64,000 nucleotides of DNA from Frankiales bacterium (GTDB lineage Bacteria; Actinomycetota; Actinomycetes; Mycobacteriales; SCTD01). Shown piece after piece: positions 4,806-23,095 of the stretch; the first letter of the stretch is position 1; each line of letters starts with the position of its first letter. The position numbers and the translations under genes were made by a program. The notes beneath the pieces were generated by a model. The model saw only the letters and a program-made list of their open reading frames with translations. It was not told the origin of the DNA and searched no databases. The DNA lies in assembly GCA_025465135.1 (NCBI GenBank), contig JAODNA010000049.1, positions 44,507 through 108,506 of the forward strand. Reading direction: 5' to 3'.

Positions 4806-4928
4806 GCCATGAATCGGTCACCAAGGACGCTCGTCGGCGTACCGAGCCCCCGCTACCCGCGCCCTCGCAAGGGTAGATGTCGCCGGGCAGCAGACGCCGT
4901 GACAGCGACTCACTGCTGGCGAGAGTCG

Positions 4929-6962
4929 TCAGCCTGCGTGATAGCCGACGACGTCGGCGACGAGCTGGGTCTTTGCGCCGTACACCGTGAGTGTGAGCTG
5001 CCCGTTGCGGATCGCAGAGATCGCGAGACCGGTGGTGTTGAGACCGGGCAGGAAGTTCAGGGAAGTCGTTGTGGGCGTGGTTCCTGGGGCCGACAGCCGC
5101 AGATATCCCTTCCCGGCCCCCGACACGACGGAGATGTCGATCACGACCCCCGTGGCTGAGGCGGGGACGCTGGCCGGCAGGGACACCGTGACGGGGCCGC
5201 TTCCGGGGCCGGTGGCGCCCATGCCGCCGCGGGTGTCGAGGAAGCGCTGAGGAGTGATGGCCACATAGGCGCTGCTGCTCGTCGAGCCTGCGTCGTAGAA
5301 GCCGACGACGTCCAGCACCAGCTGCGTCGGGTTGCCGGCGATGGAGACGGTCAGCGACCGGTTGTTGGTCCTGGTCATGGCAAGAGCTGTGACGGACTGA
5401 CCGCCCGTGTAGTTCAGCGCCGTCGTGGTCGGGGTGGTGCCCGTAGGGGCGATCCGGAGGTAGCCGTCGCCGCTCGGCTCGACGACCGAGACGTCGAGGA
5501 CGACACCGGCCGCGTCGGCAGGGACGCTGCTCGGCACCTGGACCGTGACATCGCCGGTGCGCGGTCCGCTGGTCGTCCCCTTGCCGGCGCGGGTGTCCAC
5601 GAAACGGACCGGCGCCAGCGGCACGTAGTGACCGCCGGAGCCGCTGGCAGCGGTGTAGTAGCCGACCAGGTCGACCACGAGCTGGCTCGAGGATGTGTAG
5701 AGGGTGAGGGTGACCCGCCGCTGCGCGTCCATCAGTGTGACGACAAGGCCGGTGACGGACTGGCCGGTGGCGAAGTTCAGCGCAGTAGTGCTCGGCTGGG
5801 CGCCGGCCGCGGACGCCCGCAGGAAGCCGGTGTGGGTCGGCCCGATGACCGAGACGTTGAGGACCACTCCGGTCGCGTCGGTGGGTACCTGGGCCGGCAC
5901 GCTGACCGTGAGCTTGCTCGTCCGACCGCTGCGGGCGCCGATGCCGCTGCGCGTGTCGACGAAGCGGACCGGGTCAACCCCGACGTACCGGCTGTTGCGT
6001 GGCGCGGTGCGCAGGTCTGCACTCGGCGGGTTGTCGTCGGGGCTGCTCGTGCCCGGACCCCACGAGCCGCTGGAGCCGCCGGTCGGCTGCGGCGTCGGGG
6101 AGGACGGCGTCCCCGACGGGCTCGGGTCGGCGGCCGCGGCGGAAGACGGGCTGGGGGTCGGCGGGGTTGTCGGCCCCGCCGCCGGCGTGGGCGTCGGCGT
6201 GCCAGGCGCGGTCGGTCCGGGTGTCGGCTGTGGGGGCGGGCCGAGGGCGAGGTCCGAGAGCCGCTGCGGGTCGCCGTGGAACTGGTCGACGTCGGTCGAG
6301 CCGCTGCTGGAGATCCCGTCGACAGATCCGCTTGAGGTGTACTGCCAGAACGTCCACGTCGGCCAGGTGAGCGAGGTGGGCGCGCTGACCCCGTAGTTCG
6401 CGATCCACAGGGGGTAGCCGGTGAAGGCGGCGCTGTTGCCCATCGAGTGCTGCCAGAAGTACGGGTACGTGTAGATCATCGGCGTACGACCCGTGAGGTT
6501 CTGCAGGGTCGTGAGGAAGGTGGTCGTCCAGTTCTCCAAGGCCGCGGCGGTCAGCCCGCCGTTCTCCTCGAGGTCGAGCGTCGGCGGCAGCGTTCCCGGG
6601 ACGTTCTGCGCGCCGATGGCACCCGCGAACGCCTGCGCCTGGCTCTGCGCCGTCGTGATGTCGGACGAGGGCCGGGCGTAGTGGTAGGCGCCGTGGATCA
6701 GGCCGGCGGACGCGGAGTCCTGCCAGTCGGGGCCGAAGTAGGGATTCGTGTACGTCGTGCCTTCGGTGGCCTTGATGAAGGTGAACTGGTCGCCGGCGTC
6801 GTGGACCCGGTGCCAGTCGATCGCCGCCCCACTGGGGTGCTGGTAGCTGGCAACGTCGGGGCCCTCGGGACCGAAGCTGCCTGCGACAGCCCGACCGGCG
6901 GGAAGGGCGAGCACCGTCCCGACGACAGCCGCCACCAAGCCAACGAGAAGCCGGGGGGACAT
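4929..6962 (-). CDS. Secreted GH25 muramidase with Pro-rich linker and three tandem C-terminal repeats
   Basis: GH25 motifs are GPDVASYQHPSGAAIDW, FTFIKATEGTTYTNPYF and GAYHYARP. ATG 6962 gives the signal peptide MSPRLLVGLVAAVVGTVLALPAGRAVA; the longest ORF starts at GTG 6989. A P/T/S linker follows, then three repeats of about 115 aa. Confidence 0.9.
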   Translation of the reverse strand: MSPRLLVGLVAAVVGTVLALPAGRAVAGSFGPEGPDVASYQHPSGAAIDWHRVHDAGDQFTFIKATEGTTYTNPYFGPDWQDSASAGLIHGAYHYARPSSDITTAQSQAQAFAGAIGAQNVPGTLPPTLDLEENGGLTAAALENWTTTFLTTLQNLTGRTPMIYTYPYFWQHSMGNSAAFTGYPLWIANYGVSAPTSLTWPTWTFWQYTSSGSVDGISSSGSTDVDQFHGDPQRLSDLALGPPPQPTPGPTAPGTPTPTPAAGPTTPPTPSPSSAAAADPSPSGTPSSPTPQPTGGSSGSWGPGTSSPDDNPPSADLRTAPRNSRYVGVDPVRFVDTRSGIGARSGRTSKLTVSVPAQVPTDATGVVLNVSVIGPTHTGFLRASAAGAQPSTTALNFATGQSVTGLVVTLMDAQRRVTLTLYTSSSQLVVDLVGYYTAASGSGGHYVPLAPVRFVDTRAGKGTTSGPRTGDVTVQVPSSVPADAAGVVLDVSVVEPSGDGYLRIAPTGTTPTTTALNYTGGQSVTALAMTRTNNRSLTVSIAGNPTQLVLDVVGFYDAGSTSSSAYVAITPQRFLDTRGGMGATGPGSGPVTVSLPASVPASATGVVIDISVVSGAGKGYLRLSAPGTTPTTTSLNFLPGLNTTGLAISAIRNGQLTLTVYGAKTQLVADVVGYHAG
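4932..5987 (-). repeat. Three tandem in-frame domain repeats (about 360, 360 and 336 nt) inside the GH25 gene
   Basis: Repeat starts are YVGVDPVRFVDTR (aa 335), YVPLAPVRFVDTR (aa 455) and YVAITPQRFLDTR (aa 575). Each repeat contains GVVL(N/D)VSV..., G(F/Y)LR..., TT(A/S)LN(F/Y) and ...LV(V/L/A)D(L/V)VG(Y/F)(Y/H). Nucleotide spans are 5987-5628, 5627-5268 and 5267-4932. Confidence 0.8.
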
Positions 6963-7153
6963 CGACCGACGGTAAGCCCGGGACTCCACTTCTCTGGGGA
7001 TTTGGGATGCTGCGAACCTGCGGTGTCGGGCGTCGCGACCCGCCCCTCGAAGTCGGCTCTCAGGTAACGGTCAGTTGCTGCCCTCGGACGCGGGGCACGC
7101 TTGGCTCTCCCATGAGGAACGGAACCCGCCGTGGAGCTGGCTGACTTCATGCC

Positions 7154-8794
7154 GTGGTCGCTGGTCGCGGCCGGGCTGCTGTGGGTCCTGACGGCCATGC
7201 GCCGGGGGTGGTGACCGCTCCGGTCCCGGGGGAAGCCGTCCCGGCACGGCGCTGGCCGTGGCGAGCCGATTCGGCCTTTCTCGTGGCGGGCGTCCTCGAG
7301 CTCATCTACCTGGCAGTGCGCCCACAGGCGCCGGACCTGCCGGCACAGCTCGCACGAGCAAGCGCCGTGTCCCGCGGCGTGCAGCTGTGGTGGGCCGGCT
7401 GGTACGGCGGGATCAACACCTCCACGTACAGCCTCATCTCCGCGCACCTGATGAGCGCCCTCGGCGTGAGCGTGGTGGGGGTGGTGGCGACCGCCGCGAT
7501 CTGCCTCTTCGGCGCCGACCTGGTCCGACCCACCGAGCGCCCGCGAGCGGGTGCGGTCGCCGTCGCGGTCGCCGCCTGCGCGAACCTCTACTCCGGTCGC
7601 ATCACCTTCGCGGCCGGCATGGCGATCTGTCTCGCGAGCTTCTGCGCCTTCCGCCGCGGCCACGTGCGCGCAGCAGTCGTGCTGTCACTGTGCACGGGCT
7701 TCGTGAGTCCCCTTGCCGCCCTGTGTCAGCTCGTGGGCCTCACGGCGCTCCTGCTGACCGGCGGCCCCCGGGCGCGGCTCGTGTCGATGAGCGTGGCGTG
7801 CCTGCTGCCGGTCGCCGTCATCTCGCTGGTGTTCGGCCAGCCGTCGTACATGCCGTTCAGTGCCGACACCTGCGTGTTCGCGTTGCTCGCCTGCGCGGGC
7901 GTGGCTCTGGCGCCGGTACCGCGCCTGGTGCGAGCCTTGGCTCTTGTCTCTGCGGTGCTGGCGATCGTTGCCGTCGCCGTCCACTCCCCGGTCGGGAGCA
8001 ACGCCGCACGGATGCCCATGCTCGCTGCCGCCCCCCTGGTTGTCGCGACCGCCCGTCGTGGCACGCAGCACGCCAAGGTGCTCGTCGTCGGTCTGCTGGT
8101 CTGGCCGCTGATCAGCTTCTCCAGCGACATGGCGATCGCAGCTCAACCCAGCAGTCACGCCTCCTTCTACTCGCCGCTGCTGCGGCAGCTCCCCCCGGCG
8201 GGTACCTCCTTGCAGCGCCTGGAGGTCCTGGATCCACGCAGTCACGGAGCCGCGTTCTACCTGTCCAGGCAGGTACCTCTTGCCCGCGGCTGGGAGCGGC
8301 AGATCGACGCAGCCAGCAATCCGATCTTCTACGTCGGACCGCTCACCGCGGCGACGTACCGTGCGTGGCTGGTGACCCACGCCGTGGGCTGGGTCGCCGT
8401 CCCCGACGGAGCGCTCGACTACAGCGCGCTCGCCGAGAAGGCCCTGGTCACCCGCGGCCTCCCCTACCTGCACCAGACGTGGTCCGATCAGCACTGGCGG
8501 CTGTACCGCGTCACGGCAGCCGCGCCCGTTGCAACCGGGGTGCTGAGCGCCACCGGGCTCACGGACACCGGCGTCGAGCTCGAGGCCCGGTCGGCCGGTA
8601 GCGGCGCGGTGCGCGTGCCCTACAGCAGGTTGCTCACGGCCCGGTCGACGAACGACCCGCGTGTGCTCGGGTGCGTCTCACCAAGCCCGAGCGGCGACGT
8701 GGTCATCACGGTGCCCGCCGCCGGACCGTACGTGCTGCACGCAGAGGTCGGCGCGTTGGCGCGGTCATGTGCATCGCCCGGGGGCCCGCAGTGA
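7154..8794 (+). CDS. Polytopic integral membrane protein with C-terminal soluble domain (possible GT-C-like enzyme; function unknown)
   Basis: 546-aa ORF with many hydrophobic segments (e.g. FLVAGVLELIYLAV, VVGVVATAAICLFGA, LLACAGVALAPV, VLAIVAVAV). It has a non-hydrophobic C-terminal part of about 200 aa (PLARGWERQIDAASNPIFY...). It is divergent from the GH25 gene. The start is uncertain. Confidence 0.7.
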   Translation: MVAGRGRAAVGPDGHAPGVVTAPVPGEAVPARRWPWRADSAFLVAGVLELIYLAVRPQAPDLPAQLARASAVSRGVQLWWAGWYGGINTSTYSLISAHLMSALGVSVVGVVATAAICLFGADLVRPTERPRAGAVAVAVAACANLYSGRITFAAGMAICLASFCAFRRGHVRAAVVLSLCTGFVSPLAALCQLVGLTALLLTGGPRARLVSMSVACLLPVAVISLVFGQPSYMPFSADTCVFALLACAGVALAPVPRLVRALALVSAVLAIVAVAVHSPVGSNAARMPMLAAAPLVVATARRGTQHAKVLVVGLLVWPLISFSSDMAIAAQPSSHASFYSPLLRQLPPAGTSLQRLEVLDPRSHGAAFYLSRQVPLARGWERQIDAASNPIFYVGPLTAATYRAWLVTHAVGWVAVPDGALDYSALAEKALVTRGLPYLHQTWSDQHWRLYRVTAAAPVATGVLSATGLTDTGVELEARSAGSGAVRVPYSRLLTARSTNDPRVLGCVSPSPSGDVVITVPAAGPYVLHAEVGALARSCASPGGPQ

Positions 8795-8831
8795 GGCGGC
8801 GCGGACGCGACGCCGTCAGCCTGTCCGTGCA

Positions 8832-9659
8832 GTGAGCCGACGTCCCTCGCGCTGGCGCGGCTGGCTCGTCTTCATCGGCCTGCTGTTCCCGGTGACTGCC
8901 GCAGCTGCCTGGTTCATCCTCACCAGCGGCGCACCCGGCGCACAGCGACCCGTGGGCTGCACGGTGGCAGCGGGTGCCGGGCACTACTCCCTCGAGCTGC
9001 CGCAAGCGGCGAACGCGGCCACGATTGCGGCAGTGGCGGCTCACTTGGGCTTGAGCGACCACGCGGTCAGCATCGCCCTGGCCACCGCGTTGCAGGAGAG
9101 CAAGCTGCACAACCTCCCTTACGGGGACCGCGACTCGGTCGGGCTCTTCCAGCAGCGGCCGTCGCAAGGCTGGGGTCCCCGCGAAAGGCTGCTCGAACCG
9201 CATTACGCGGCGTCGACGTTCTTCGCACACCTGGCGCAGGTCCCCGGATGGCAGACGATGCCCGTGGCGACCGCCGCCCAGGCTGTCCAGCGAAGCGCTG
9301 CCGGGTCGGCGTACGCCGACTGGGAGCCGGAAGCGCGCGCGATCGCCCAAGCTCTGACCGGCGAGGTGCCGCGGGGCATCGCCTGCGCCTTCGGTCACAC
9401 CGGCAGCTCGGTGCAGGGTCTGACGTCGGCGCTCGCCAGCGACCTCGGGCCACGCGCCACCGGCGTGCCCGCCTCCAGCAAGCAGCGTTGGCGGGTCGCC
9501 AGCTGGCTCGTCGCGCAAGCCGCGCAGTACGACGTGGTGACCGTGAGGTGCGGTGGCTGGCAGTGGACCCGGGCGTCCGGGGCGTGGAGTCTCAAGCCGG
9601 CTCGCTCGCCGCGCCCGATCGTGTCCTACGCCGTCGGAGCCCCAGCAGCCACGTCGTAA
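8832..9659 (+). CDS. Conserved membrane-anchored hypothetical protein (GLFQQRPSQGWG motif)
   Basis: Lies in ORF 8661..9659. The in-frame GTG at 8832 gives VSRRPSRWRGWLVFIGLLFPVTAAAAWFIL (TM). The motif is LHNLPYGDRDSVGLFQQRPSQGWG. No function can be assigned from sequence alone. Confidence 0.75.
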   Translation: MSRRPSRWRGWLVFIGLLFPVTAAAAWFILTSGAPGAQRPVGCTVAAGAGHYSLELPQAANAATIAAVAAHLGLSDHAVSIALATALQESKLHNLPYGDRDSVGLFQQRPSQGWGPRERLLEPHYAASTFFAHLAQVPGWQTMPVATAAQAVQRSAAGSAYADWEPEARAIAQALTGEVPRGIACAFGHTGSSVQGLTSALASDLGPRATGVPASSKQRWRVASWLVAQAAQYDVVTVRCGGWQWTRASGAWSLKPARSPRPIVSYAVGAPAATS

Positions 9660-10008
9660 GCGGTCTCAGAAGAGTCGGTAGCTGTCGAGGCTGATGGAGT
9701 TGCCTCCCGCGGTGCAGGCCGCGACGGTGAGCACCCCCCACGCCGCTGCGAGCAGCCGAGTCCGATCGCGCACGAGCGGACTTTGCCAGATTGCGGAGCC
9801 CAAGTGGGGGTCGTAGCGACATGAATCGAACCTGAGTGAGACAGCGGTTCGCCGAACCGAACGCCGCCGCGCGGACTCTCCTGTAGGGAGCGGGGCGCCC
9901 GCGGCAGAGCGCGCTGAGCGAGGTGGGCCGGGAACCTGGAGGCGAGGGCGTCGTTCTTCCCAGTAGGTCGAAAGGGCGCCAACAACGGCGGCGAGGGAAG
10001 TAGGTGCG

Positions 10009-11085
10009 GTGGATCGCGGTCCTGACCGGGCATATCGCGGTCTGGCGTGGACCGGCGAGCGGGCGCTGCCCTGGGGTGAGGACCTTCAGGTCCTTTACGA
10101 GCACTACCACCGCTACCTCCTGGTCCGGGCGTGGGTGACCGACCGGGACGTCCTCGACCTGGGTTGCGGTGAGGGCTACGGCGCTGACCTGCTCGCTGCG
10201 AACGCTCGATCGGTTGTCGGGATCGACATCGCCGACGAGGCCGTTCAGCACGCCCAGCGGCGATACGCCCGGCCGGGACTGCGCTTCGCTCAAGGGTCGA
10301 TGACCGACGCGTCTTCGGTGGACGCCGACAGCTGCGACATCGTCGTCTGCTTCGAAGCGCTCGAGCACGTCGTTGAGCATCAGGAGCTGCTGGCCGTCGT
10401 ACGCAAGGCACTGCGGCCCGGCGGCCTGTTCGTCACGTCGACACCGGAACGGGTGGCCTACAACGACGACCGGTCGGGCGGCGAGAACCCGTTTCATCTT
10501 CGAGAGCTCGACCGGGGGGAGTTCGCTGACCTGCTCGGCGGGGCGTTCATCAACTACGCACTGCTGGACCAGCAGATCGCCGTCGGGTCCCTGGTCACAT
10601 CCGCCAGCGCGAGCCCCGACCACTCGGCGACGGTGGCACTCCTGCGCCAAGGCGACGGATGGGTAGGCGCGGAGCTACCGCCGGCGACCTACCTACTAGG
10701 CGTGGCGTCCGACGAGCCGCTGCCGTCCTTGCCCTCGGTGTCGGTGCTCGTAGACCCGCAGATCGAGCTCGTCCGTGACGCGCAGCGACGGATGTACGAC
10801 GCGATGGACCAGGCAGCCCAGCTCCGCGACCAGCTCGCGACCGCACGAGCAGCAGCGGACCGGCGGACGGCCGACTCCATGGCGAACGCCGATGTCCTTC
10901 GCGGGGAGACCGCCCGACTAGGCCAGGAGCTGGTCGCGACACGCGAGCGGCTGCGCGATGCGGATCAGCGGGCAGCTGACCTGCGCGTGCGGGTGGACTA
11001 CCTGGAGTCCTCGCGTGCCTACCGGGTCTACCGCGCGTTGCGTGCCGCCTATGCCGCAGCCCGCTCGGCGGGCACGGCCGGCTGA
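10009..11085 (+). CDS. Class I SAM-dependent methyltransferase with about 100-aa C-terminal coiled-coil
   Basis: The SAM motif is VLDLGCGEGYGADLL, followed by IVVCFEALEHV and LRPGGLFVTSTP. The C-terminus is heptad-like and R/A/D/Q-rich (QLRDQLATARAAADRR...LRDADQRAADLRVRVDYLESSRAYRVYRAL). The RBS GAGGGAAG lies 8 nt before GTG 10009. Confidence 0.85.
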   Translation: MDRGPDRAYRGLAWTGERALPWGEDLQVLYEHYHRYLLVRAWVTDRDVLDLGCGEGYGADLLAANARSVVGIDIADEAVQHAQRRYARPGLRFAQGSMTDASSVDADSCDIVVCFEALEHVVEHQELLAVVRKALRPGGLFVTSTPERVAYNDDRSGGENPFHLRELDRGEFADLLGGAFINYALLDQQIAVGSLVTSASASPDHSATVALLRQGDGWVGAELPPATYLLGVASDEPLPSLPSVSVLVDPQIELVRDAQRRMYDAMDQAAQLRDQLATARAAADRRTADSMANADVLRGETARLGQELVATRERLRDADQRAADLRVRVDYLESSRAYRVYRALRAAYAAARSAGTAG

Positions 11086-12251
11086 GTCCCCGGGCCGCCC
11101 CTCGGCCGAGCCCGCGCGGGGGCGATCCGGTCCGCCAGCCGTAGTGCGGGGCGCTCGATGAGGAACCAGCTCGCGGCGGCTGCAGGGACGGAGACCGCGA
11201 GCAGCACGAACACGTCCACCGCGAACCCGAGACTGCCGCGAGCACCAGTGAAAACACCGTAGAGCTGTAGGTCCCGTTGAAGGAGGAAGTGCCACAGGTA
11301 GATCCCGAAGGAAATGACCCCGAGCGGCGCCAGCGCGCGGACAACCGGGCCATGGCGCCGTCCGGAGGTCAGCCACGCCAGAAGAAGTGCCCCCGCCAGG
11401 GCCCGAAGCAGCCGGCGACCATCCTGCACCGGCAGTGCGGGGACGGCGTCGAGTGCCAGCATCGCCACCGTCAGTGCGCCGACAGAGAGCGCTAGGAGCC
11501 GCGGGCGCGCGAAATCGGCCAGCACGACCGGAAGTCGGGGCCACGCGGCTGCGGCCTCGGGAGTCCGAGCCACAGCCAGGAGCATGCCGGGCACGAACAG
11601 GCACATCGTCGCGGGTACGGACAGCCTCAGGGGGCGCGACCAGACGCTGTGGTGCTCATCTCCGACTCCTGCCGCCAGCACGGCGAACGTGACCGACACA
11701 ATCGCAACCGCGATGAGCGCCCCGACAACGCGCTCCGGCGACAACGGCGTGCTCCCCCGGCGTCTCCGAACCACCACGCAGGTCAGTGGCATGAAGACGT
11801 AGAAGACGATCTCGCAGTGCAGGGTCCAGGCGACCCCGAGGCCGTGTGCGAGTTGCCCTGGGAAGGGGTTCTGCAGCAAGAGGATGTGCAGGGTCCACAT
11901 CCACCACGGCCACGGCACGTAAGGAGCAGCTGTGATCGCCGCGAGAGCGACCCAGTACGCCGGCAAGACGCGCAGCGCACGACGTACGCCGTAGCGACGC
12001 AGGTCCGGCAACGGGCCGCCGTCAAGGAGCCGACGCAGGAACGGGCCGGCGACCAGGTAGCCGGACAAGGCGAAGAAGATGTCCACCCCGATGTCGAGGT
12101 TGGCCCACAGCAGGTAGAGCACCGCGCCGGGCCAGCCCGGCGTCGGGTGTGGTCGGCCGACGGGGAACAGGCCGCTGTGGATCGCGAGCACGGACAGTGC
12201 GGCGACGGCGCGGAGGGCATCGATCCCCGGATCGCGGGCGAGCTTGGTCAC
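11049..12251 (-). CDS. Acyltransferase-3 family membrane O-acyltransferase
   Basis: IDALRAVAALSVLAIHS is the typical acyltransferase_3 N-terminal motif, followed by about 10 hydrophobic segments. GTG 12251 forms a GTGA overlap with the stop of the upstream GT gene; the longest ORF runs to 12362. Confidence 0.85.
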   Translation of the reverse strand: MTKLARDPGIDALRAVAALSVLAIHSGLFPVGRPHPTPGWPGAVLYLLWANLDIGVDIFFALSGYLVAGPFLRRLLDGGPLPDLRRYGVRRALRVLPAYWVALAAITAAPYVPWPWWMWTLHILLLQNPFPGQLAHGLGVAWTLHCEIVFYVFMPLTCVVVRRRRGSTPLSPERVVGALIAVAIVSVTFAVLAAGVGDEHHSVWSRPLRLSVPATMCLFVPGMLLAVARTPEAAAAWPRLPVVLADFARPRLLALSVGALTVAMLALDAVPALPVQDGRRLLRALAGALLLAWLTSGRRHGPVVRALAPLGVISFGIYLWHFLLQRDLQLYGVFTGARGSLGFAVDVFVLLAVSVPAAAASWFLIERPALRLADRIAPARARPRGGPGTQPAVPAERAAA

Positions 12252-14233
12252 CCGCTGAGTACGCCGAGGCGGAGCAGTGCGTCCTCGAGCGCCTGCTTCG
12301 CGGCATCGGGCGACAACCGCCCGGCGATGTGCTCGGCACCGGCGGAAGACAGTCGACGCCAAAGCTCGTCGTCCGCGAGCAGACGTAAGACGCCCTCGGC
12401 AGTGGAGGCCGCGCTGTCCGCGACGAGCAGGTGAGTTGCATCTACGAGGTCCATTCCCTCGGCACCGACGGAGGTGGTGACTACGGGAAGGCCTCGCCGC
12501 AGGGCGTCACCAACCTTGCCCTTGACCCCTGCGCCGAAGCGCAACGGCGCGACGAGCACCCGGCTCGTGTTGTGCAGCTCCGTCAGGTCCGCGACCCAGC
12601 CGAGCACCTCCACACAAGGCCCGGCAAGCTGTTCGACGTCCGGGGGCATCCGGCTGCCTACGATGCGCAGCACCGTCCCGGGCGCCCGCTCCTGGATCAG
12701 CGGCAGGATCTTCTCGACCATGTACTGCGCACTGTCGACGTTCGGCGGGTGCTGGAAGTTGCCGACCAGGAGCAACCCGGACCGCCCGTCGGGACCGGGC
12801 GGCGGTGGCAGGGTCGGGTGGATGTTGGACACGACAGCCACGTCCAGGCCGGGGTGCTCGGCCAGCAGGAGCTGACGTTCGGGCTCGCTCACGGCGAGGG
12901 TGAGGTCCACGTCAGACGCGATCGCGAGCTCCATGGCCTTCATCGTCAACGCCAACCGCGAGATGTGGCTGGCGTCGGTGGCCTCGCCCTCACGCAACAA
13001 GCGGACGAAATGCAGGTCGACGGTGTCGTACACAAGCACGGCCTGGGGGACGAGCTGCCGGACAAGGGGCAGGAATCGGAGCGCGTTGGCCGGCCGGCTC
13101 AACACCACCGCAGCGAGCTCAGGTCCCAACTCGGCCAGCACCTGGGCCGGGTCCACCGGCCCATAGCGAACCTCGACTCCCCGCTGTTGCAGACGGTCCA
13201 GCCACGGCTGGCGAAGAACCCCGTCGACGGGCAAGAGCGTCACGACGCAGCCCAGCGCGCCGAGGATCTCCAGCAGGTGCCACATCCGTTCTGAGCCGGA
13301 GTCCTCATCGGGGGTGGGGACGCGATCGTCGACGACGAGCACCCGCGGGCCGGGGCGGCGGTCCCGGGCCCGCGTGAGCCTGGGCGGCGCCTCCGGCAGC
13401 TGCTCGGCGAGCCGCTCGGCCCATCGCTCGACGAAGACCCCATGGTTGCGTACCTGATGGGCCTTGCCGCCGCTGGTCACGTCCGTCCCGTGGCTTGCTC
13501 CCTCATGGTGGAACACCGTCGCCCGCGGTTGGTAGACGACCTTCCAACCGAGCTCTCTGGCCCGAAAGCACAGGTCGGTGTCCTCGTAGTACGCCGGAGA
13601 GAAGATGGGGTCGAAGCCGTCGAGGGCCCCCCAGACCTCGCGCCGTACGAGCAGTGCCGCCCCGGAGCAGTAGTCGACCTCGCGGACGTAGGCGTACTCC
13701 CCGACGTCTGGGCTCTCGCCCCGGCCGTAGTTCCAGCCGTGGCCGCTCTGCCAGATGATGCCCCCGGCCTCCTGCAGCCTCCGGTCTGGATACACGAGCC
13801 GGCAGCCCACGACACCGACGCGGGGGTCGGCCTCTACCGTGGCGACCAGTTCATCGAGCCAGCCGGCGGTCACTTCCGTGTCGTTGTTGAGCAGCACGAC
13901 GTACTCACCGCGGGCAAGGCCGGCGCCGGTGTTCGCACTGTGCAGGAAACCGCGGTTGGCTTCGTTGCGGTGCACGAGAAGGTGGGGAACCTGGCTGAGG
14001 ACTGCGGCGCTCTCATCGGGTGAGGCGTCGTCGATCACGATGACTTCATAAGCGAGTGCGGGCGGGTTCCGCGCTATGGACTCCAAGCAGCGCACCGTCA
14101 GCTCGAGCTGGCCATAGGCGCAGATGACGACCGAGGCAGTGGGCACCGCACACGGCGCGAGCAAGACGTCCGCCGCGCGCGCAGCGAGGGCGGGGTCCGA
14201 GGCCCCGCGCTCATAGGTCAGCATGCGGCCCAT
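12248..14233 (-). CDS. Bifunctional glycosyltransferase (N-terminal GT2 + C-terminal GT4/GT1-like)
   Basis: GT2 motifs are VVICAYGQ..., VIVIDDASPDES, LLNNDTEV and YYEDTDLCFRARELGW. The C-terminal half carries GT4-like motifs (VGNFQHPPNVDSAQY..., PLRFGAGVKGKVGDALRRGLPVVTT). The start is ATG 14233 or 14224; the longest ORF (14284) would collide with the divergent ABC gene. Confidence 0.9.
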   Translation of the reverse strand: MGRMLTYERGASDPALAARAADVLLAPCAVPTASVVICAYGQLELTVRCLESIARNPPALAYEVIVIDDASPDESAAVLSQVPHLLVHRNEANRGFLHSANTGAGLARGEYVVLLNNDTEVTAGWLDELVATVEADPRVGVVGCRLVYPDRRLQEAGGIIWQSGHGWNYGRGESPDVGEYAYVREVDYCSGAALLVRREVWGALDGFDPIFSPAYYEDTDLCFRARELGWKVVYQPRATVFHHEGASHGTDVTSGGKAHQVRNHGVFVERWAERLAEQLPEAPPRLTRARDRRPGPRVLVVDDRVPTPDEDSGSERMWHLLEILGALGCVVTLLPVDGVLRQPWLDRLQQRGVEVRYGPVDPAQVLAELGPELAAVVLSRPANALRFLPLVRQLVPQAVLVYDTVDLHFVRLLREGEATDASHISRLALTMKAMELAIASDVDLTLAVSEPERQLLLAEHPGLDVAVVSNIHPTLPPPPGPDGRSGLLLVGNFQHPPNVDSAQYMVEKILPLIQERAPGTVLRIVGSRMPPDVEQLAGPCVEVLGWVADLTELHNTSRVLVAPLRFGAGVKGKVGDALRRGLPVVTTSVGAEGMDLVDATHLLVADSAASTAEGVLRLLADDELWRRLSSAGAEHIAGRLSPDAAKQALEDALLRLGVLSG

Positions 14234-14286
14234 CGTGCTACAACCAGGGATTGGACGGCCACGGAGCCGCAGCAAGGGGGACACGG

Positions 14287-15486
14287 GTGGTCGTACGCGC
14301 TGCGGGAGTCAGCAAGCGCTTCTCCGCCTATACGCACCGTCCCACATCGATCAAGGAGCGCCTCGTACGAGGACGGCTCGAGCACGACGACTTCTGGGCC
14401 CTCCGCGACATCACGCTCGACATCGAGGCCGGACAGACTGTGGGCCTCATCGGTGCAAACGGCTCCGGCAAGAGCACCCTGCTCAAGATCCTGGCCGGCA
14501 TCCTTCGGCCCACCGCCGGCGCGGTCGACGTCACCGGGCGCACCGCCTCACTCCTCGAACTGGGGGCCGGCTTCAACGGCGAGCTGACCGGCCGCGAGAA
14601 CGTCTACCTGAACGCCGCGATGCTCGGTCTCACGCGGCGTGAGGTCGACAGCCTCTTCGACGACATTGTCGAGTTCGCCGAGCTCGGGAACTTCATCGAC
14701 GGGGCCGTCAAGCACTACTCCTCGGGCATGTACGTCCGGCTCGGTTTCGCGGTGGCTGTGCACGTCGACCCCGACGTGCTGCTCGTGGACGAAGTCCTGG
14801 CCGTGGGTGATGAGGCCTTCGCCGCGAAGTGCCTGGCAAAGATCAGCGAGTTCCAGGCTGAAGGACGGACGATTCTCGTCGTCAGCCACTCCCTCGACAT
14901 GATTCAGGCGGTCTGCGACCGCGCCGTCGTGCTCAGCGCCGGGAGAGTCATTCACGACGGCGCTGCAGACGAGGGTGTGCAGGTCCTGCGTGCAGTCCTC
15001 AGCACGGCCACCCAGAAGCGGGCTGAGGAAGCCGGCTCGGATCAGGCTTCGGTGGTCGCCTGTCTGGGAGTCGAGCTCTTCGACCGAGGCGGCCGGCCGC
15101 ACATGGAGGCCGCGGCGGGCGACGGCATAAGACTTCACGTCCGCCTGCGCCTCGAAGAGCCCCGCAGCCTCGTCGTACGAGTTGTGATCACCGGCCACTT
15201 CGACCTGCCAATGTTCGTCCTGCAGACACCGACAGCGGTCGAGCTGCCGATCGGAGAGTCTGAGGTCATCTTCACGGTGGATCAGCTGCCCCCGCTCGAA
15301 GGGACGTTCTCGCTTGCCGTCGGAGTCGAGGACGGCCGAGGCGGCAGCGTCGCGGCGGCCGCGCGCTACGAGCACCGATTACACATCCGCAGCGGACACG
15401 GGCACGGCTTGCTCGCCGTGCCCCACATCGCGGCCGTTCGCCCTGCGGGCGGAGCCGCGGTCATATCACCGAAGGCTCCCACTTAG
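14287..15486 (+). CDS. Wzt/TagH-type polysaccharide-export ABC transporter ATP-binding protein with about 150-aa C-terminal extension
   Basis: Motifs are Walker A GANGSGKSTLLK, signature YSSGMYVRLGFA and Walker B LLVDEVLAVGD. A beta-rich C-terminal tail spans residues about 250-400. GTG 14287 is preceded by AAGGGGG. No ABC-2 permease gene is adjacent. Confidence 0.9.
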   Translation: MVVRAAGVSKRFSAYTHRPTSIKERLVRGRLEHDDFWALRDITLDIEAGQTVGLIGANGSGKSTLLKILAGILRPTAGAVDVTGRTASLLELGAGFNGELTGRENVYLNAAMLGLTRREVDSLFDDIVEFAELGNFIDGAVKHYSSGMYVRLGFAVAVHVDPDVLLVDEVLAVGDEAFAAKCLAKISEFQAEGRTILVVSHSLDMIQAVCDRAVVLSAGRVIHDGAADEGVQVLRAVLSTATQKRAEEAGSDQASVVACLGVELFDRGGRPHMEAAAGDGIRLHVRLRLEEPRSLVVRVVITGHFDLPMFVLQTPTAVELPIGESEVIFTVDQLPPLEGTFSLAVGVEDGRGGSVAAAARYEHRLHIRSGHGHGLLAVPHIAAVRPAGGAAVISPKAPT

Positions 15487-15530: not shown

Positions 15531-15932
15531 TCACCGGACGATGATGATCATCGCGCAGACCGCCAGCGTCGCTGCGGTCAAGACCACTGCCAACTGCGTT
15601 ACCAGGGCTACAGCAGGCTCTGCGGCCCGGACTGCGTCGATGCCGCGCACGAGTCGGTCGGTCATCCCGGCGACGAAGAGCCCAGTCAGCCAGGCGAGGG
15701 CGGTCAGCGGCACGACCGCCAGGAGCACCCAGAGAGCCGCGTCCCCGGCGCCCCCGTCGGTGGCGAACGCGGTCGGGCTGATCCGGCCGCCGTGCCAGCT
15801 GATCCAGGCTCCGCGCACCGACCAGGTGAAGGCGAGCGCCGCGCACACCGCTGCCGCCCGCCCCGCTGCCCGCATGTCGAGAGTGTGACCAGCCCTTGGG
15901 CCCAGGGCAAGGGTCGCCGTGGGCTCCGGCAC
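15531..15932 (-). CDS. Small hypothetical membrane protein
   Basis: Hydrophobic segments are AAAVCAALAFTW, ALWVLLAVVPLTALAWLTGLFVAG and LAVVLTAATLAVCAMIIIV. The start is uncertain (GTG 15932 or ATG 15875). There is no recognisable domain. Confidence 0.45.
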   Translation of the reverse strand: MPEPTATLALGPRAGHTLDMRAAGRAAAVCAALAFTWSVRGAWISWHGGRISPTAFATDGGAGDAALWVLLAVVPLTALAWLTGLFVAGMTDRLVRGIDAVRAAEPAVALVTQLAVVLTAATLAVCAMIIIVR

Positions 15933-15965
15933 GTCGAGGCATGAGTCGGCCCTCGGGCAGGGTTG

Positions 15966-17303
15966 CTAGTTCTGCTCTTGGCAGTGCTGGAACGCCCACT
16001 GCGTCCGCCCGTATCTGGGGTCGATGGGCTTGGCTCTGCGCCACCTGGGAGTGAGACCGAAGATCCCTTCGATGTCGTCGAGTGCTCCGGGTCTGTCGAG
16101 GCGTACGTACTCGCCGGCGTTGCAGGTCATGCGTTGCGGTTGCGTGCTCCCTGGGTCGCAGCGGCCGACGTTGTCCAGGTCCAACCTGTCACCCGGCTTG
16201 AGGCTGTTGCAGTCATAGAAGCGGCTGCGCTGGGTGTAGACGCGCAGCGCGTCATCGCTCTCCAGAACGAGGGATGGCATCGTCGTTCCCGGCTGGATGT
16301 GAAGGTGCGACGGTGACCCCGAGTCGACGTGGCTCTGCATCGACGGCATGCGGTCGACACTCGACACGTTGGCCTTCCGGTCGATGGCCAAGTAGGAGGC
16401 AAGAACCAGGGTGTGCGGACCCTCGTCCGTGCTGCCGTAGACGAGCAGGTGAAGGGTGCCGTCTGCGTCGGTGACGTACTCCACGCCGGCGAGAACGCGC
16501 GCCTTCGGATGCTCGGCCGAGCTGAGGGGGAAGGTCAGCCGCGTCGGCGGGAGCGCGTCGGGCAGCTCGACGAGCAGACGCAGGTCGCTGATCGACACCG
16601 AGAAGCGCTCTCCGTGGTGCGTCCGGAACCAATCCGTCGTGCCGACGAGTGGTCGGCCATCGACGACCTCGACGGTGGCGACCGGACCGCTGGCGGCGCG
16701 TCGCGCATAGGCACGCTGTCCGTCGTCGTACGTCCAAGCCCTTCCTTCTGAGCCGGGCAGCGCGACGCGACGCGCAGTCGTTCCGTCGGACACCACGGTG
16801 TCGGCTTTCGCGGAGCCGAACGGTGCGAGGATGGAGCCGCCCTCGAACACGTGCAGGAACTGCGCCGGGATGGCCCCACCGGGGATGGGGACCGCACCGA
16901 GGTACGTCCCCGAGCCGCTGAAGTGTGCGAGCCGGTGCTTGCTGCTGTCGAGGAACCACCATGTGCCATCGGCGGCCGGCGCAGCCGACGCCGGCCCCGA
17001 CGGCGGCGACTTCCCGCCGTGGGCGCCGGCGAGCCCGAGCTGCGAGGGACGGCTGCCGTAGCCGATCGTCATGGCCAGCTGCCACGTGCCGAGCATCTTG
17101 CCCGCGGTCGCCAACGCGAGCGACTGCCCGGAGGACACCCAAGGGATCGCGGTGCTCCTAGCAGGAGATGCCGGCGAGGGCGACTGCGGCAACGTCGGTT
17201 GCGCGGTGACCGTGCCGCCGGTGCATGCGGGCAGCAGCACGAGAAGGATCAGTAGGTTCACGAACCTGGTCGGCCGCACGGCGCCGACTGTCGCAGGTCT
17301 CAT
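15966..17303 (-). CDS. Lipoprotein, third gene of ECF cassette 1
   Basis: Lies in ORF 15966..17543. ATG 17303 gives MRPATVGAVRPTRFVNLLILLVLLPAC with the lipobox LLPAC. It lies 32 nt downstream of partner P1. The C-terminus is Cys-containing and the domain is unknown. Confidence 0.8.
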   Translation of the reverse strand: MRPATVGAVRPTRFVNLLILLVLLPACTGGTVTAQPTLPQSPSPASPARSTAIPWVSSGQSLALATAGKMLGTWQLAMTIGYGSRPSQLGLAGAHGGKSPPSGPASAAPAADGTWWFLDSSKHRLAHFSGSGTYLGAVPIPGGAIPAQFLHVFEGGSILAPFGSAKADTVVSDGTTARRVALPGSEGRAWTYDDGQRAYARRAASGPVATVEVVDGRPLVGTTDWFRTHHGERFSVSISDLRLLVELPDALPPTRLTFPLSSAEHPKARVLAGVEYVTDADGTLHLLVYGSTDEGPHTLVLASYLAIDRKANVSSVDRMPSMQSHVDSGSPSHLHIQPGTTMPSLVLESDDALRVYTQRSRFYDCNSLKPGDRLDLDNVGRCDPGSTQPQRMTCNAGEYVRLDRPGALDDIEGIFGLTPRWRRAKPIDPRYGRTQWAFQHCQEQN

Positions 17304-17335
17304 GCCGCTTTGCCGTCTCGCGTCGCCTTGCTGCG

Positions 17336-18241
17336 TCAGTCCGCCGGGACGAAACGGATGTCCCCGAACTCTCCGCCCGTCACATGCTTGCCCGTCCACT
17401 GGGCCACGACCACCGCATAGCCGGGGAACTGGTCGTAATGCTCCACGGCCGCGGCCAGCCGAACTCCACGGGCGTCGACCGTGCCGGCCTTCGCGTTCGT
17501 CGCGACGACGCCGCCGATGAGGCTGCATCGAGGTTCCTCGCACGGTGGTCCGAGGACGGGGTCGAGGTGCTCGACCCCGTCAGGGGTCACGATGCTTCCC
17601 GCACAGACATGCTGGAACGGGTCGGGCTGACCCCAGCAGGGAACGGTGCCCGCGCCCGGTCTGGACGCCTCAAGCCAGGTTTGGGAGCCGGCGATGCCCG
17701 TGTCCCGCAGGGATCCCGGAACCGCCTGCGGCAGGTCTGCGTAGGTGAAGTGAAGCAACACGGGGCGACCGTGCTCGCCGACGGCAGAGACGTGGGCAAC
17801 GCCATCCTGGCGCGACGCGCAGCCGTACATCGTGACGGTCGCCGCTGCCGAGCTCGTTTGGTATCGGAACTCGTGCGATCCCCTCGCTGCCTGCGCGGCG
17901 GCTGCGGCCAGACGGGCACACTCCCGCAGGCGCTCGGCGACGTAGGAAGGCGCCGTCGACGCCGTCACGACGGTGATGGTCGCGGCGCCGGACCCCGCGG
18001 AGAGGGTGGATCCGCCGTCGGTCCCGAGCTGTCCATTGGCGCTCCCGCCGCCGCCTGGCAGTCCGGTGATCACGAACGCCGTCGCGGCGGCGGCGAACGC
18101 GCCAGCCGCGCCGAGCGCGGCGCTGCGGCGGCGGTGACGGCGCCTGCCTTCGCGGAACACGGCTGCCGCGGGCGGCATCGCGCCGTGCGAGGCGATCTCC
18201 CGCGCGCCGTCCCGCATCAGTGTGACGAGGGGATCAGTCAT
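17336..18241 (-). CDS. ECF cassette 1 partner P1: single-pass membrane protein (putative anti-sigma/sensor)
   Basis: ATGA overlap with the sigma-1 stop (18238-18241). The N-terminus is MTDPLVTLMRDGAREIA...GRRRHRRRS followed by the TM AALGAAGAFAAAATAFVITGL, then an ectodomain of about 240 aa. No HxxxCxxC motif is present. Confidence 0.8.
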   Translation of the reverse strand: MTDPLVTLMRDGAREIASHGAMPPAAAVFREGRRRHRRRSAALGAAGAFAAAATAFVITGLPGGGGSANGQLGTDGGSTLSAGSGAATITVVTASTAPSYVAERLRECARLAAAAAQAARGSHEFRYQTSSAAATVTMYGCASRQDGVAHVSAVGEHGRPVLLHFTYADLPQAVPGSLRDTGIAGSQTWLEASRPGAGTVPCWGQPDPFQHVCAGSIVTPDGVEHLDPVLGPPCEEPRCSLIGGVVATNAKAGTVDARGVRLAAAVEHYDQFPGYAVVVAQWTGKHVTGGEFGDIRFVPAD

Positions 18242-20170: not shown

Positions 20171-20649
20171 CAGCAAGGTTCCTCAGCAAAGGCGAGTAGT
20201 GCTCGTAGGCGAGGCAGCGCGCGGGCCGTCTGGCTCTTGACCGTGCCGGTGGAGCAACCGAGCGCTGCGGCGGTCTGGTCGATCGACAGGTCATCGAAAA
20301 ACCGGAGGATGACGACGGCTCGCTGACCCGGAGGCAGCGTGGCGAGGGCCGCGAGGACGTCGCGACATGCGGACTCGGGCTCGGTGCCGGCGGCGGCGTC
20401 GCGCTCCCCGAGCGGCACTTCGGCGTGGCGACGGCGGGTGCGCCAGCGATTGGTGGCGGCGTGCGCGATTGCTCGCCTCGCGTACGCGTGCGGGTCGTCG
20501 ATCCGGGACCAGCGTGCGTACATGCGCTCCAGGACGTCTTGCAGGAGGTCCTCTGCGGTACCGCGGTCGCCGACCAGCAGGAAGGCGGTGCGGAGCAAGC
20601 GACGGGACGCTCCTAGGACGAAAACGTCGAAGCCCTCGTCCCTCGCCAC
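20170..20649 (-). CDS. ECF sigma factor 2 (subfamily A, actinobacterial SigE-like type)
   Basis: Region 2 is FDVFVLGASRRLLRTAFLLVGDRGTAEDLLQDVLERMYARWSRIDDPHAYARRA. Region 4 is GQRAVVILRFFDDLSIDQTAAALGCSTGTVKSQTARALPRLR. Confidence 0.9.
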   Translation of the reverse strand: MARDEGFDVFVLGASRRLLRTAFLLVGDRGTAEDLLQDVLERMYARWSRIDDPHAYARRAIAHAATNRWRTRRRHAEVPLGERDAAAGTEPESACRDVLAALATLPPGQRAVVILRFFDDLSIDQTAAALGCSTGTVKSQTARALPRLRALLAFAEEPC

Positions 20650-20680
20650 GTGCCTGCCTCTCTTCGGTCCCGAGGGAAGG

Positions 20681-20704
20681 ACACCGCAGGCGGGCTCCTA
20701 GGTT
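20681..20704 (-). promoter_or_regulatory. ECF-type promoter candidate for sigma-2 (AACC-N16-GTGT)
   Basis: The reverse strand reads GACAACC-taggagcccgcctgcg-GTGTCC. A 31-nt leader containing AAGAGAGG precedes GTG 20649. Confidence 0.4.
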
Positions 20705-20708
20705 GTCA

Positions 20709-20892: not shown

Positions 20893-20934
20893 GTTGGGCG
20901 TGGCTGCTGCACGCGGCGGCCGGAACGGGACGGT

Positions 20935-23082: not shown

Positions 23083-23095
23083 CTCCCACGCCTTC

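Follow-up and report, generated by a model that had tools for sequence, protein, structure and literature searches.

A strategy that combines a polymerase, a terminator of chain growth and a transporter that reads the cap is known from Escherichia coli O8/O9a and Klebsiella and is described as widespread in bacteria; the markers given for it are a terminator with an extended coiled coil and a transporter whose nucleotide-binding domain (NBD) bears a carbohydrate-binding module (CBM) (PMC11231755). In E. coli O8/O9a (Klebsiella O5/O3) these roles fall to the multi-module polymerase WbdA, to the terminator WbdD, in which a catalytic head is followed by a long helix and a C-terminal helix, and to Wzm-Wzt, whose ABC ATPase bears the CBM as a C-terminal beta-sandwich (PMC11231755, PMC3482155). 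The CPA 'TET operon' of Pseudomonas syringae packs the same four functional classes into a compact, strain-variable transport, elongation and termination unit comprising wzm, wzt with a Wzt_C-like domain, a methyltransferase and a bifunctional glycosyltransferase, beside rhamnose biosynthesis genes (PMC7820976).

Here we describe a locus of this already well-known kind, unusual solely in that the gene for the membrane channel of the exporter is nowhere to be found in the 64 kb of DNA analysed (hereafter the window). The source is a MAG of an uncultured Frankiales bacterium, which agrees with the actinobacterial host proposed in a preliminary description of the DNA; the strands and domains given there for a cluster of four genes (10009-15486) are likewise borne out by ORF coordinates and Pfam searches. 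These encode a methyltransferase (MT1), an acyltransferase-3 (AT3), a GT2+GT4 glycosyltransferase fusion (GT) and a Wzt-type ABC ATPase. With moderate confidence we interpret them as the part of an ABC-transporter-dependent cell-envelope glycan pathway that handles elongation, termination, decoration and energy coupling, with wzm located elsewhere. The multi-module polymerase, the layout of the terminator and the beta-sandwich on the ATPase are common to the locus and E. coli O8/O9a, from which it differs in that its host is an actinobacterium without LPS and its wzm is unlinked. The likeness to the TET operon is by functional class, and the 64 kb hold neither wzm nor sugar-precursor genes; Pfam searches of the window ORFs recovered no priming transferase, NDP-sugar gene or LCP ligase.

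The ATPase (14287..15486, + strand; 399 aa) starts at GTG 14287 behind the Shine-Dalgarno sequence AAGGGGGA, and its product is identical to MCU1589587.1; the longest ORF, of 411 aa from 14251, was rejected in favour of this start and the NCBI protein. It matches ABC_tran in Pfam (E = 1.4e-20), and its NBD (residues 1-240; 14287..15006, +) displays the Walker A (GANGSGKST), signature (YSSGM), Walker B (LLVDE) and H-loop (SHS) motifs, the residues of which occupy invariant columns in an alignment of 64 sequences (A1). The best PDB matches in a phmmer search are to Aquifex aeolicus Wzt (8dku, 7k2t; E = 7e-67; query residues 3-348), part of the closest solved relative, WzmWzt (7k2t, 8dku, 8dne; carbohydrate-binding domain (CBD) alone 6o14, 8dky), followed by TagH/TarH and mycobacterial Wzt; NCBIfam searches recover TagH (E = 1e-59 to 1e-65) and galactan Wzt (E = 1.5e-49), all below the equivalog cut-offs. 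On the strength of these comparisons we assign the ATPase to the Wzt/TagH family, its NBD being of the same family as those of the Gram-positive and mycobacterial glycopolymer exporters TagGH/TarGH and galactan Wzm-Wzt (RfbD/RfbE; PDB 7dd0, 6jbh, 9cfl, 9qfx). Among the solved chains matched, those of TarH and mycobacterial Wzt are NBD-sized, at 260-270 residues, whereas the ATPase of the window adds a Wzt_C-like beta-sandwich.

ABC ATPases as a class are promiscuously annotated, and the NCBI record of this one reads merely 'transporter related protein', which would also suit an unrelated importer or drug-efflux ATPase standing beside the glycan genes by coincidence; the unrelated importer had already been raised in the preliminary description. 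We regard this as extremely improbable: Wzt, TagH and TarH lead both the sequence and the fold matches, the orthologues adjoin the same GT wherever a related locus shows the two genes, and ABC2_membrane permeases partner the ATPase in its nearer relatives (clade C, below) as well as in more distant ones. Synteny and homology thus effectively refute this alternative.

The C-terminal domain of the ATPase (residues 246-399; 15022..15483, +) confirms the beta-rich extension of about 150 aa described earlier: it spans ~155 aa and is modelled with ~10 beta-strands (257-386; pLDDT mostly 85-96). It appears to be a distant relative of the Wzt_C carbohydrate-binding domain. The suggested match to Wzt_C (PF14524) stayed below the Pfam threshold (17-20 bits, where the cut-off is 30.4), as it does for 13 of the 23 members of the family, with a best E of 1.3e-5, and found its support in the fold, in that Foldseek aligns 381-389 columns of the model, C-terminal domain included, with full-length, CBD-bearing A. 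aeolicus Wzt chains at 30-32% identity (E ~1e-36). The NBD gives most of this score (TM is 0.55 with the full-length match and 0.51 with a chain that comprises the NBD only). With a profile of the C-terminal domain alone, the top PDB matches are again the A. aeolicus CBD (8dky, 6o14), at marginal E-values of ~1.2-1.6 that are not significant.

MT1 (10009..11085, +; 358 aa) is a class I SAM-dependent methyltransferase with a helical stalk. It matches Methyltransf_11 and Methyltransf_23, as had been expected of it, along with Methyltransf_25 and Methyltransf_31, the Methyltransf_11 match covering residues 49-142 (E = 1.5e-20); the exact sequence is present in NCBI as MCU1589584.1, mis-named there 'putative glycosyltransferase'. 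Model secondary structure resolves its catalytic head (10138..10740, +) into a Rossmann core (~44-150) and a conserved beta-rich subdomain reaching to ~244, and the family alignment (A2) reveals invariant D50, G54, G56, G58, E116, H120, N160 and Y228. As in the O8/O5 terminators, the head is a methyltransferase and has no kinase domain. In the AlphaFold2 model (pLDDT 90) there follows a continuous helix at residues 253-333 (10765..11007, +; 81 aa, ~12 nm if straight; block pLDDT 86-98), a candidate coiled-coil spacer, and the length of this segment differs among homologues in A2. A second helix, SRAYRVYRALRAAYAAARS (residues 336-356; 11014..11076, +), is a candidate membrane- or partner-binding element; its S-x-x-[YW]-R...R motif is conserved across A2, and its hydrophobic moment of 0.39-0.53 makes it moderately amphipathic only.

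The coiled-coil tail claimed for MT1 is therefore supported as a long helix and not proven as an oligomeric coil, because its heptad periodicity, by a crude score that 96 of 1000 shuffles reach, is not significantly above that of shuffled sequences. For two relatives (P0147, P0176), precomputed Pfam lists also name PF19220, PF00261, PF24161 and PF10473, which we take to be coiled-coil-type families. Similarly, the proposed parallel with WbdD holds for the succession of head, long helix and terminal helix and fails for homology: a phmmer match between WbdD and MT1 (E = 3.5e-4) is limited to the Rossmann core, and WbdD is absent from the top 50 fold matches of MT1, which are generic small-molecule methyltransferases such as UbiG. 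Neither its sequence nor its fold ties MT1 specifically to WbdD, of which it is an architectural analogue, not a demonstrable homologue. The helix of MT1, at about 81 residues, is a further point of difference from the E. coli system.

The resemblance of the MT1 head to generic small-molecule O- and N-methyltransferases, the weak heptad signal and the sub-threshold Wzt_C match would fit a pathway without capping, in which MT1 acts on internal residues or a non-glycan substrate, the helix serves in oligomerisation or anchoring, and the C-terminus of Wzt binds the chain generally or regulates the ATPase; moreover, the full cassettes of relatives hold a second methyltransferase, fused to a GT2 (MT2), that might be the true terminator. 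We find this doubtful in view of the layout of MT1, of its tight linkage to the two-module GT across phyla, and of the CBD-like domain on the ATPase, which accompanies terminal modification in studied systems (PMC11231755).

That GT (12248..14233, -; 661 aa), a candidate polymerase, joins an N-terminal GT2 module (GT-A; Glycos_transf_2, E = 4e-25) to a C-terminal GT4-type module (GT-B; Glyco_trans_1_4, E = 1.8e-21), whereas the modules of WbdA are GT4 and all mannosyl. For its start, ATG 14233, kept in two related loci (L172, L174), is preferable to that of the longest ORF. Orthologues 67-73% identical adjoin wzt every time, and full-length fusions with 36-47% identity are spread over many phyla, where an MT1 homologue frequently lies 1-3 kb upstream of them; the pairing is kept in distant phyla (L009, L010, L013, L022, L023, L033, L035), as expected of a terminator and a polymerase. 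The stop codon TGA of GT lies over the start codon GTG of AT3 in a GTGA overlap (12248..12251, -), so that the translational coupling noted in the preliminary description stands, and the same 4-bp overlap recurs in the relative L001 (genes 6599-7825 and 7822-9810). AT3 (11049..12251, -; 400 aa; Acyl_transf_3, E = 2.9e-30) is an integral-membrane protein with eight hydrophobic segments and a probable glycan O-acetyltransferase; its 3' end overlaps that of MT1 by 37 bp, and orthologues 67-77% identical are found in L001, L007 and L173. Such an integral, translationally coupled AT3 sets the cassette apart from E. coli O8/O9a.

If E. coli O8/O9a and the TET operon are taken as models, GT would polymerise a polyprenol-linked chain at the cytoplasmic face, its two active sites possibly making two linkages, and AT3 would O-acetylate the glycan. 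The ~12-nm helix might hold MT1 away from the membrane and the polymerase, with the terminal helix as an anchor, and methylation of the non-reducing end by MT1 would stop growth; the beta-sandwich of the ATPase could then bind the modified terminus and license export. The analysis establishes the identities of the domains, their folds, the conserved linkage of the genes and the intact state of the ATPase; the methyl cap, the ruler function with its control of chain length, the recognition of the cap and the nature of the sugars are what we infer from these systems.

The comparison of gene order sustained the linkage of these genes and at the same time revealed a permease in the cassette of some relatives. 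In metagenomic relatives with ATPases 64-70% identical (clade C: L001, L006, L007 and L173, from uncultured 'Mycobacteriales/Frankiales'), orthologous MT1 (63-69% identity), AT3a, GT and Wzt lie in a seven-gene cassette, with the same GTGA coupling and divergent GT/wzt promoter region and with proteins 64-77% identical to their counterparts in the window. The cassette further encodes a second acyltransferase (AT3b, or AT3-SGNH), MT2, a fusion of a methyltransferase with Glyco_tranf_2_4, and Wzm, an ABC2_membrane protein; the window, which has none of these three, is a four-gene subset of this unit. Clade C has Wzm in the same cassette, and its absence here does not characterise the pathway type. 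The order is MT1> <AT3a <GT Wzt> AT3b> MT2> <Wzm in L001 and (AT3b>) MT2> Wzm> MT1> Wzt> (<AT3a) <GT in the other three, so that the AT3b-MT2-Wzm block, downstream of wzt with wzm inverted in the former and upstream of MT1 in the latter, is mobile within the cassette. Throughout clade C, Wzm is within 3 kb of wzt, and in every one of the more distant Wzt relatives examined wzm is directly upstream of wzt.

The window itself contains no ABC-2 permease gene or remnant, as the preliminary description had reported: ABC2_membrane matched none of the GC3-supported ORFs submitted to Pfam, a tblastn search of the 64 kb with the Wzm of relatives found no match, and a Wzm profile run against its six-frame translation (hmmsearch --max) gave a best E-value of 2.1. 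The ORF survey agrees, the only multi-TM ORFs in the window being the membrane protein at 7154, AT3, one MFS ORF and one weak, low-GC3 ORF with three segments. A decaying remnant, from which AT3b-MT2-Wzm was deleted to leave an orphan ATPase without a channel and a glycan unexported or no longer made, would account for this absence, given the close linkage of wzm and wzt in clade C and the distant relatives. It would also suit the unrelated convergent ORF only 44 bp from the wzt stop and a metagenome scan with the Wzm profile, contingent on assembly coverage and a pair of exact peptide patterns, in which no detached AT3b-MT2-Wzm block and only loci with wzm directly upstream of wzt appeared.

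We nevertheless think such decay unlikely. All four ORFs are intact, with starts and coupling conserved, and a strain 99-100% identical (L089) retains the same upstream part of the locus. The ATPase keeps all 134 columns conserved at >=90%, at up to 7 of which relatives with a linked Wzm deviate, and against outgroup proteins it averages an identity of 0.523, not below the 0.504-0.513 of Wzm-linked orthologues; this intactness without acceleration suggests that it probably works with a permease whose gene lies elsewhere. Furthermore, two lineages whose Wzt differs by about 31-32% have kept GT and wzt intact with no such block immediately downstream, a pattern that neutral decay would hardly produce unless every loss was very recent. 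What comes after <GT Wzt> in L172 is a gene of the glyoxalase family and a convergent ORF judged by eye to encode a GT1-type glycosyltransferase (~1.3 kb visible downstream of wzt), and in L174 a convergent ORF judged by eye to encode an acyl-CoA dehydrogenase-like C-terminus (~0.5 kb visible there, the region upstream of MT1 lying outside the visible part). No ABC2_membrane gene is present in the 10 kb upstream of the MT1 orthologue in L090, from the same sample as L172. The Wzt sequences fall into clades A, B and C, with 52% bootstrap for A+B; one old separation and several recent losses both fit.

An ATPase apparently under purifying selection without a linked permease, and two further lineages without the block directly downstream of wzt, might alternatively point to a shared or non-canonical channel, the ATPase docking on the Wzm of another glycan exporter of the same cell (such as a housekeeping Wzm-Wzt for cell-wall polysaccharide or a TagGH-type system) or on an unrelated membrane protein. 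Its NBD is closely related to TagH/TarH and mycobacterial galactan Wzt, and Actinomycetota such as Mycobacterium possess such a housekeeping exporter (PDB 9qfx and related entries). Two substrates, each chosen by its own ATPase, would in that case leave through a single channel. We hold this to be improbable, knowing of no precedent for such an arrangement. Clade C has a dedicated Wzm that is better conserved than its Wzt (74-76% against 67-77% identity), which suggests specific pairing, and the neighbouring membrane proteins of the window, the 133-aa ORF and DUF7485, have no match in any related locus examined and are hence not co-conserved with the cassette; the membrane protein at 7154-8794 has an 80% identical homologue in an unrelated setting that lacks the cassette. 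We consider it likeliest that wzm is sited elsewhere in the genome and that the ATPase continues to function with its product.

The 53-bp divergent intergenic region between GT and wzt yielded no sigma-70 consensus promoter. An alignment of the window with L001, L172 and L174 reveals in it a conserved 17-nt motif, CCCATCGTGCTACAACC (14229..14245), which overlaps the start codon of GT.

Given that the window is about 70% G+C, we anchored the gene calls on third-position GC and homology and recovered at 10009-15486 all four genes of the preliminary description, with the domains it had assigned to them. In Pfam searches these are: 1) MT1 (10009-11085, + strand), a class I SAM methyltransferase of 358 aa whose Methyltransf_11 domain (residues 49-142; E 1.5e-20) answers the methyltransferase profile check; 2) AT3 (11049-12251, - strand), an acyltransferase of 400 aa with eight hydrophobic segments (Acyl_transf_3 with E 2.9e-30 and 105.9 bits, the cut-off being 31); 3) GT (12248-14233, - strand), a glycosyltransferase of 661 aa with Glycos_transf_2 (E 4e-25) and Glyco_trans_1_4 (E 1.8e-21) modules in one polypeptide; and 4) wzt (14287-15486, + strand), which begins at a GTG at 14287 with the Shine-Dalgarno sequence AAGGGGGA upstream and codes for a Wzt-type ABC ATPase of 399 aa. 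The GTGA by which GT had been said to be coupled to the acyltransferase is indeed present at 12251-12248, where the GT stop overlaps the AT3 start, and the identical 4-bp overlap recurs in one relative. The ATPase is identical to a protein from a Frankiales bacterium MAG (NCBI MCU1589587.1), which confirms the actinobacterial origin of the locus, and the MT1 product is MCU1589584.1. The public annotation of both is uninformative or wrong, MT1 being named 'putative glycosyltransferase' and the ATPase 'transporter related protein'. Moreover, in 90%-identity clustering a 91-aa fragment stands for the full-length ATPase and masks it in homology searches.

The nucleotide-binding domain (NBD) of the ATPase carries a complete set of motifs, namely Walker A (GANGSGKST), signature (YSSGM), Walker B (LLVDE) and H-loop (SHS), which occupy invariant columns in an alignment of 64 sequences. 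A phmmer search of PDB recovered the full-length Aquifex aeolicus Wzt, with its carbohydrate-binding domain (CBD) included (8dku, 7k2t; E 7e-67), over query residues 3-348, i.e. well beyond the NBD, followed by TagH, TarH and the Wzt of M. abscessus. The Foldseek ranking agrees, with the full-length A. aeolicus chains first (E ~1e-36; 381-389 aligned columns), and the best NCBIfam matches are TagH and galactan Wzt, every one of them under the equivalog cut-off. Thus, by sequence, family profile and fold the closest characterized relatives are Wzt and TagH, and the ATPase is of the Wzt type rather than part of an importer, as the preliminary description had held. In an AlphaFold2 model (64 homologues; pLDDT 86) the canonical NBD extends to about residue 240, and about 10 predicted beta-strands follow at residues 257-386. 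The beta-rich part of the claimed Wzt_C-like extension is therefore borne out by the model, but the Pfam profile Wzt_C (PF14524) scores below its cut-off of 30.4 bits, both with the whole ATPase (17.3 bits) and with the domain alone (20.2 bits). Sub-threshold Wzt_C matches occur in 13 of 23 family members (best E 1.3e-5), and a profile of the C-terminal domain places the A. aeolicus CBD chains on top, yet only at E ~1.2. Taken alone, the C-terminus appears to be only a distant relative of Wzt_C; model and profiles together make a Wzt_C-like beta-sandwich credible, but not proven at the level of the domain.

In the family alignment of MT1 the residues of the glycine-rich motif (D50, G54, G56 and G58) are invariant. 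Its AlphaFold2 model (pLDDT 90) has an unbroken helix of 81 residues (253-333; block pLDDT 86-98), whose length differs among homologues, followed by a helix at 336-356 that bears a conserved S-x-x-[YW]-R...R motif and is only moderately amphipathic (hydrophobic moment 0.39-0.53). The coiled-coil tail proposed earlier survives as a long predicted helix, on which this reading relies, since a crude home-made heptad score failed to separate the tail from shuffles (96 of 1000 reached it). The proposed likeness to WbdD, the terminator of the E. coli O8/O9a systems, holds for the architecture of head, helix and terminal helix but not for specific homology: in phmmer, WbdD (E 3.5e-4) matches no more than the Rossmann core and ranks behind more than 30 unrelated methyltransferases, and it is not among the top 50 Foldseek matches, by which the MT1 head is like that of generic methyltransferases, UbiG for instance. 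As neither Pfam nor NCBIfam finds a kinase domain in MT1, its layout most closely resembles the methyl-only O8/O5 type and not the kinase-bearing O9a/O3 type.

GT unites two glycosyltransferase modules, which belong to CAZy families different from those of WbdA, the O8/O9a polymerase. It neighbors MT1 and wzt in all the related loci, and homologs of MT1 recur with full-length GT2+GT4 homologs in Solirubrobacteraceae, Verrucomicrobia, Betaproteobacteria and Ancylobacter. This lasting linkage supports MT1 and GT as a putative functional pair of terminator and polymerase. Among species-representative genome contigs GT has no close relative, the best match being 47% identical and from other phyla. 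The 53-bp divergent region between GT and wzt contains a 17-nt motif, CCCATCGTGCTACAACC (14229-14245), that overlaps the GT start codon. Despite protein identities of only about 68%, the motif is kept in the window and in the related loci L172 and L174, with partial conservation in L001. It may serve these loci as a common regulatory or promoter element; a scan for consensus promoters and terminators gave nothing beyond shuffle expectation.

The ATPases most similar to that of the window (64-75% identical) are from metagenome assemblies, and four of the loci, L001, L006, L007 and L173, encode orthologs of all four window proteins at 64-77% identity. With AT3a and AT3b as the first and second acyltransferase and MT2 as a second methyltransferase, the order in L001 is MT1> <AT3a <GT Wzt> AT3b> MT2> <Wzm, and in the other three (AT3b>) MT2> Wzm> MT1> Wzt> (<AT3a) <GT, such that the position of the AT3b-MT2-Wzm block within the cassette varies. 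Here Wzm is an ABC2_membrane protein and MT2 a methyltransferase-GT2 fusion. Since all four window proteins have orthologs in these relatives, the window genes are a four-gene subset of a seven-gene cassette that includes Wzm, which settles the synteny comparison that had been proposed. Likewise, the components of the P. syringae TET operon (wzm, wzt, methyltransferase and bifunctional GT) are complete in these four loci, while the window has three of the four and wants wzm. MT2 (578-597 aa; L001 12189-13982 and L006 2154-3890) has a Glyco_tranf_2_4 match of 28.1 bits and ends in an arginine- and tryptophan-rich segment; absent from the window, it is possibly what actually caps the chain in the relatives. 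L173 has an extra AT3-SGNH fusion of 752 aa within the cassette (4569-6827), an architecture that we take to be typical of extracytoplasmic glycan O-acetyltransferases, OafA among them; its presence suggests that acetylation patterns may vary among strains.

The preliminary description had also noted the lack of a Wzm permease next to the ATPase, and this extends to the entire 64 kb. A hydrophobicity scan of all window ORFs returned only AT3, an MFS protein and a 546-aa membrane protein, plus one weak low-GC3 ORF with three segments; Pfam found no ABC2_membrane domain among the submitted GC3-supported ORFs; and the Wzm proteins of the relatives, searched against the six-frame translation with tblastn and unfiltered hmmsearch, gave nothing (best E-value 2.1). 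We rejected a pseudogene remnant of wzm 3' of wzt, as the gap between the wzt stop and the next ORF, which is convergent and unrelated, is just 44 bp and leaves no room for it, and there is no similarity at E up to 10. Nor do we take the 546-aa membrane protein (7154-8794) for a non-canonical permease, for it belongs to no Pfam or NCBIfam family and its 80% identical homolog, in L175, lies in an unrelated context that is not syntenic with the cassette. Similarly, the 133-aa ORF and the DUF7485 gene downstream of wzt have no matches in any related locus and were rejected as cassette members.

By contrast to the window, wzm and wzt are linked in the orthologous loci of clade C of a neighbor-joining Wzt tree and in more distant relatives: wzm lies immediately upstream of wzt in Pseudofrankia and Frankia (Wzt 52-57% identical) and in the metagenome loci L092-L099, all with the same C-terminal domain in Wzt. 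The tree has three well-supported clades, whose mutual order is not well supported: A (window, P0001), B (P0002, P0003, P0005) and C (P0004, P0006, P0007). All four clade C loci, among them L173, which is outside the tree and was assigned on its L007-like synteny, have a linked Wzm, as against none of the three observed loci of clades A and B. In L172 the sequence after the <GT Wzt> pair (~1.3 kb seen) holds a glyoxalase-family gene and, convergent with wzt, an ORF that is by eye a GT1-type glycosyltransferase; in L174 (~0.5 kb seen) it holds a convergent ORF resembling, by eye, an acyl-CoA dehydrogenase C-terminus. On these short contigs the AT3b-MT2-Wzm block does not directly follow wzt. 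A contig from the sample of L172 has no permease gene in the 10 kb upstream of an MT1 ortholog, and no detached AT3b-MT2-Wzm block for the window lineage turned up when metagenomes were scanned with a Wzm profile.

An ATPase that had lost its permease might be decaying. The window Wzt, however, has no deviations at 134 columns that are at least 90% conserved, where Wzm-linked orthologs depart at as many as 7; on average it is no less identical to outgroup proteins (0.523) than they are (0.504-0.513), with no drop in either the NBD or the C-terminal domain; and a metagenome strain in JGI (L089, 99-100% identical) keeps the same upstream arrangement. These observations disfavor decay and, as far as sequence comparisons go, argue for a working partner encoded elsewhere. 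The single unusual feature, an unlinked or possibly absent wzm beside a conserved ATPase, more likely reflects genome organization than new biology. It is rather improbable that several Frankiales/Mycobacteriales lineages stably keep a CBD-bearing Wzt with no dedicated permease, whether sharing the Wzm of another exporter or working away from any transporter, where it would sense caps for the complex of polymerase and terminator. If the ATPase truly has no dedicated Wzm, the question arises of channel sharing between ABC exporters. The more probable organization, with an unlinked permease, is a warning for cluster-based annotation, as this locus would escape pathway calls that demand wzm and wzt side by side.

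Pathways combining a terminator, a polymerase and a cap-reading transporter are reported to be widespread in bacteria (PMC11231755). The O8/O9a and Klebsiella systems, together with the P. syringae TET operon (PMC11231755, PMC3482155, PMC7820976), suggest by analogy the following likely order of events: 1) the two-module GT would polymerize a lipid-linked chain; 2) MT1, set off by its helix, would methylate the growing end and so terminate it; 3) the Wzt C-terminal domain would recognize the terminated chain; 4) the NBD would power export through Wzm; and 5) AT3 would add O-acetyl groups. Domains, folds, linkage and conservation are direct observations; that the chain is capped, measured by a ruler and recognized by its cap, and what its sugar is, we infer. 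Neither a priming enzyme nor NDP-sugar genes nor an LCP ligase is encoded in the window. The pathway type is a known one, of which the cluster is an actinobacterial case with another polymerase family and an integral AT3. To our knowledge, this strategy has been worked out almost wholly in Gram-negative O-antigens, and we know of no chemical description of a methylated, acetylated envelope glycan from these actinobacteria. The cassette and its seven-gene form in uncultured relatives indicate that the same strategy serves Frankiales/Mycobacteriales-type actinobacteria in making such a glycan, and the compact set, with a single polymerase, a single stalked methyltransferase and a single CBD-ATPase, could offer a simple Gram-positive model for relating helix length to glycan length.

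Several neighbors of the cluster are peptidoglycan-related (GatD/MurT, an M23 peptidase and a GH25 muramidase), and many ECF sigma factors are also encoded. The GH25 muramidase (4929-6989) has, by eye, a proline/threonine-rich linker and after it 3-4 repeats of about 105 aa with the pattern V-R-F-x-D-T-R ... G-V-V-L-x-V-S-V ... L-x-x-D-x-V-G-Y, without a Pfam match. The membrane protein at 7154-8794 (503 aa per NCBI and JGI) has at least seven hydrophobic segments and a soluble C-terminal part of about 200 aa, and despite lacking a named family it has about 700 homologs in Frankiales/Mycobacteriales-type metagenomes. Convergent with wzt, 15531-17543 codes for the DUF7485 protein (525 aa; E 8.7e-44) and then the co-oriented 133-aa ORF with two TM segments. 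ECF-type sigma factor genes are unusually dense, with at least seven at 20170-29897 and 39127-39783 (20170-20697, 20785-21411, 24112-24654, 27809-28360, 29376-29897, 39127-39783 and others), and the Pfam-less ORFs adjoining most of them may be anti-sigma factors. The window further encodes a rifampin ADP-ribosyltransferase (38495-39040; Arr-ms, E 1.2e-36) and a bacterial type IB topoisomerase (43241-44692; Topoisom_I and Top1B_N_bact).
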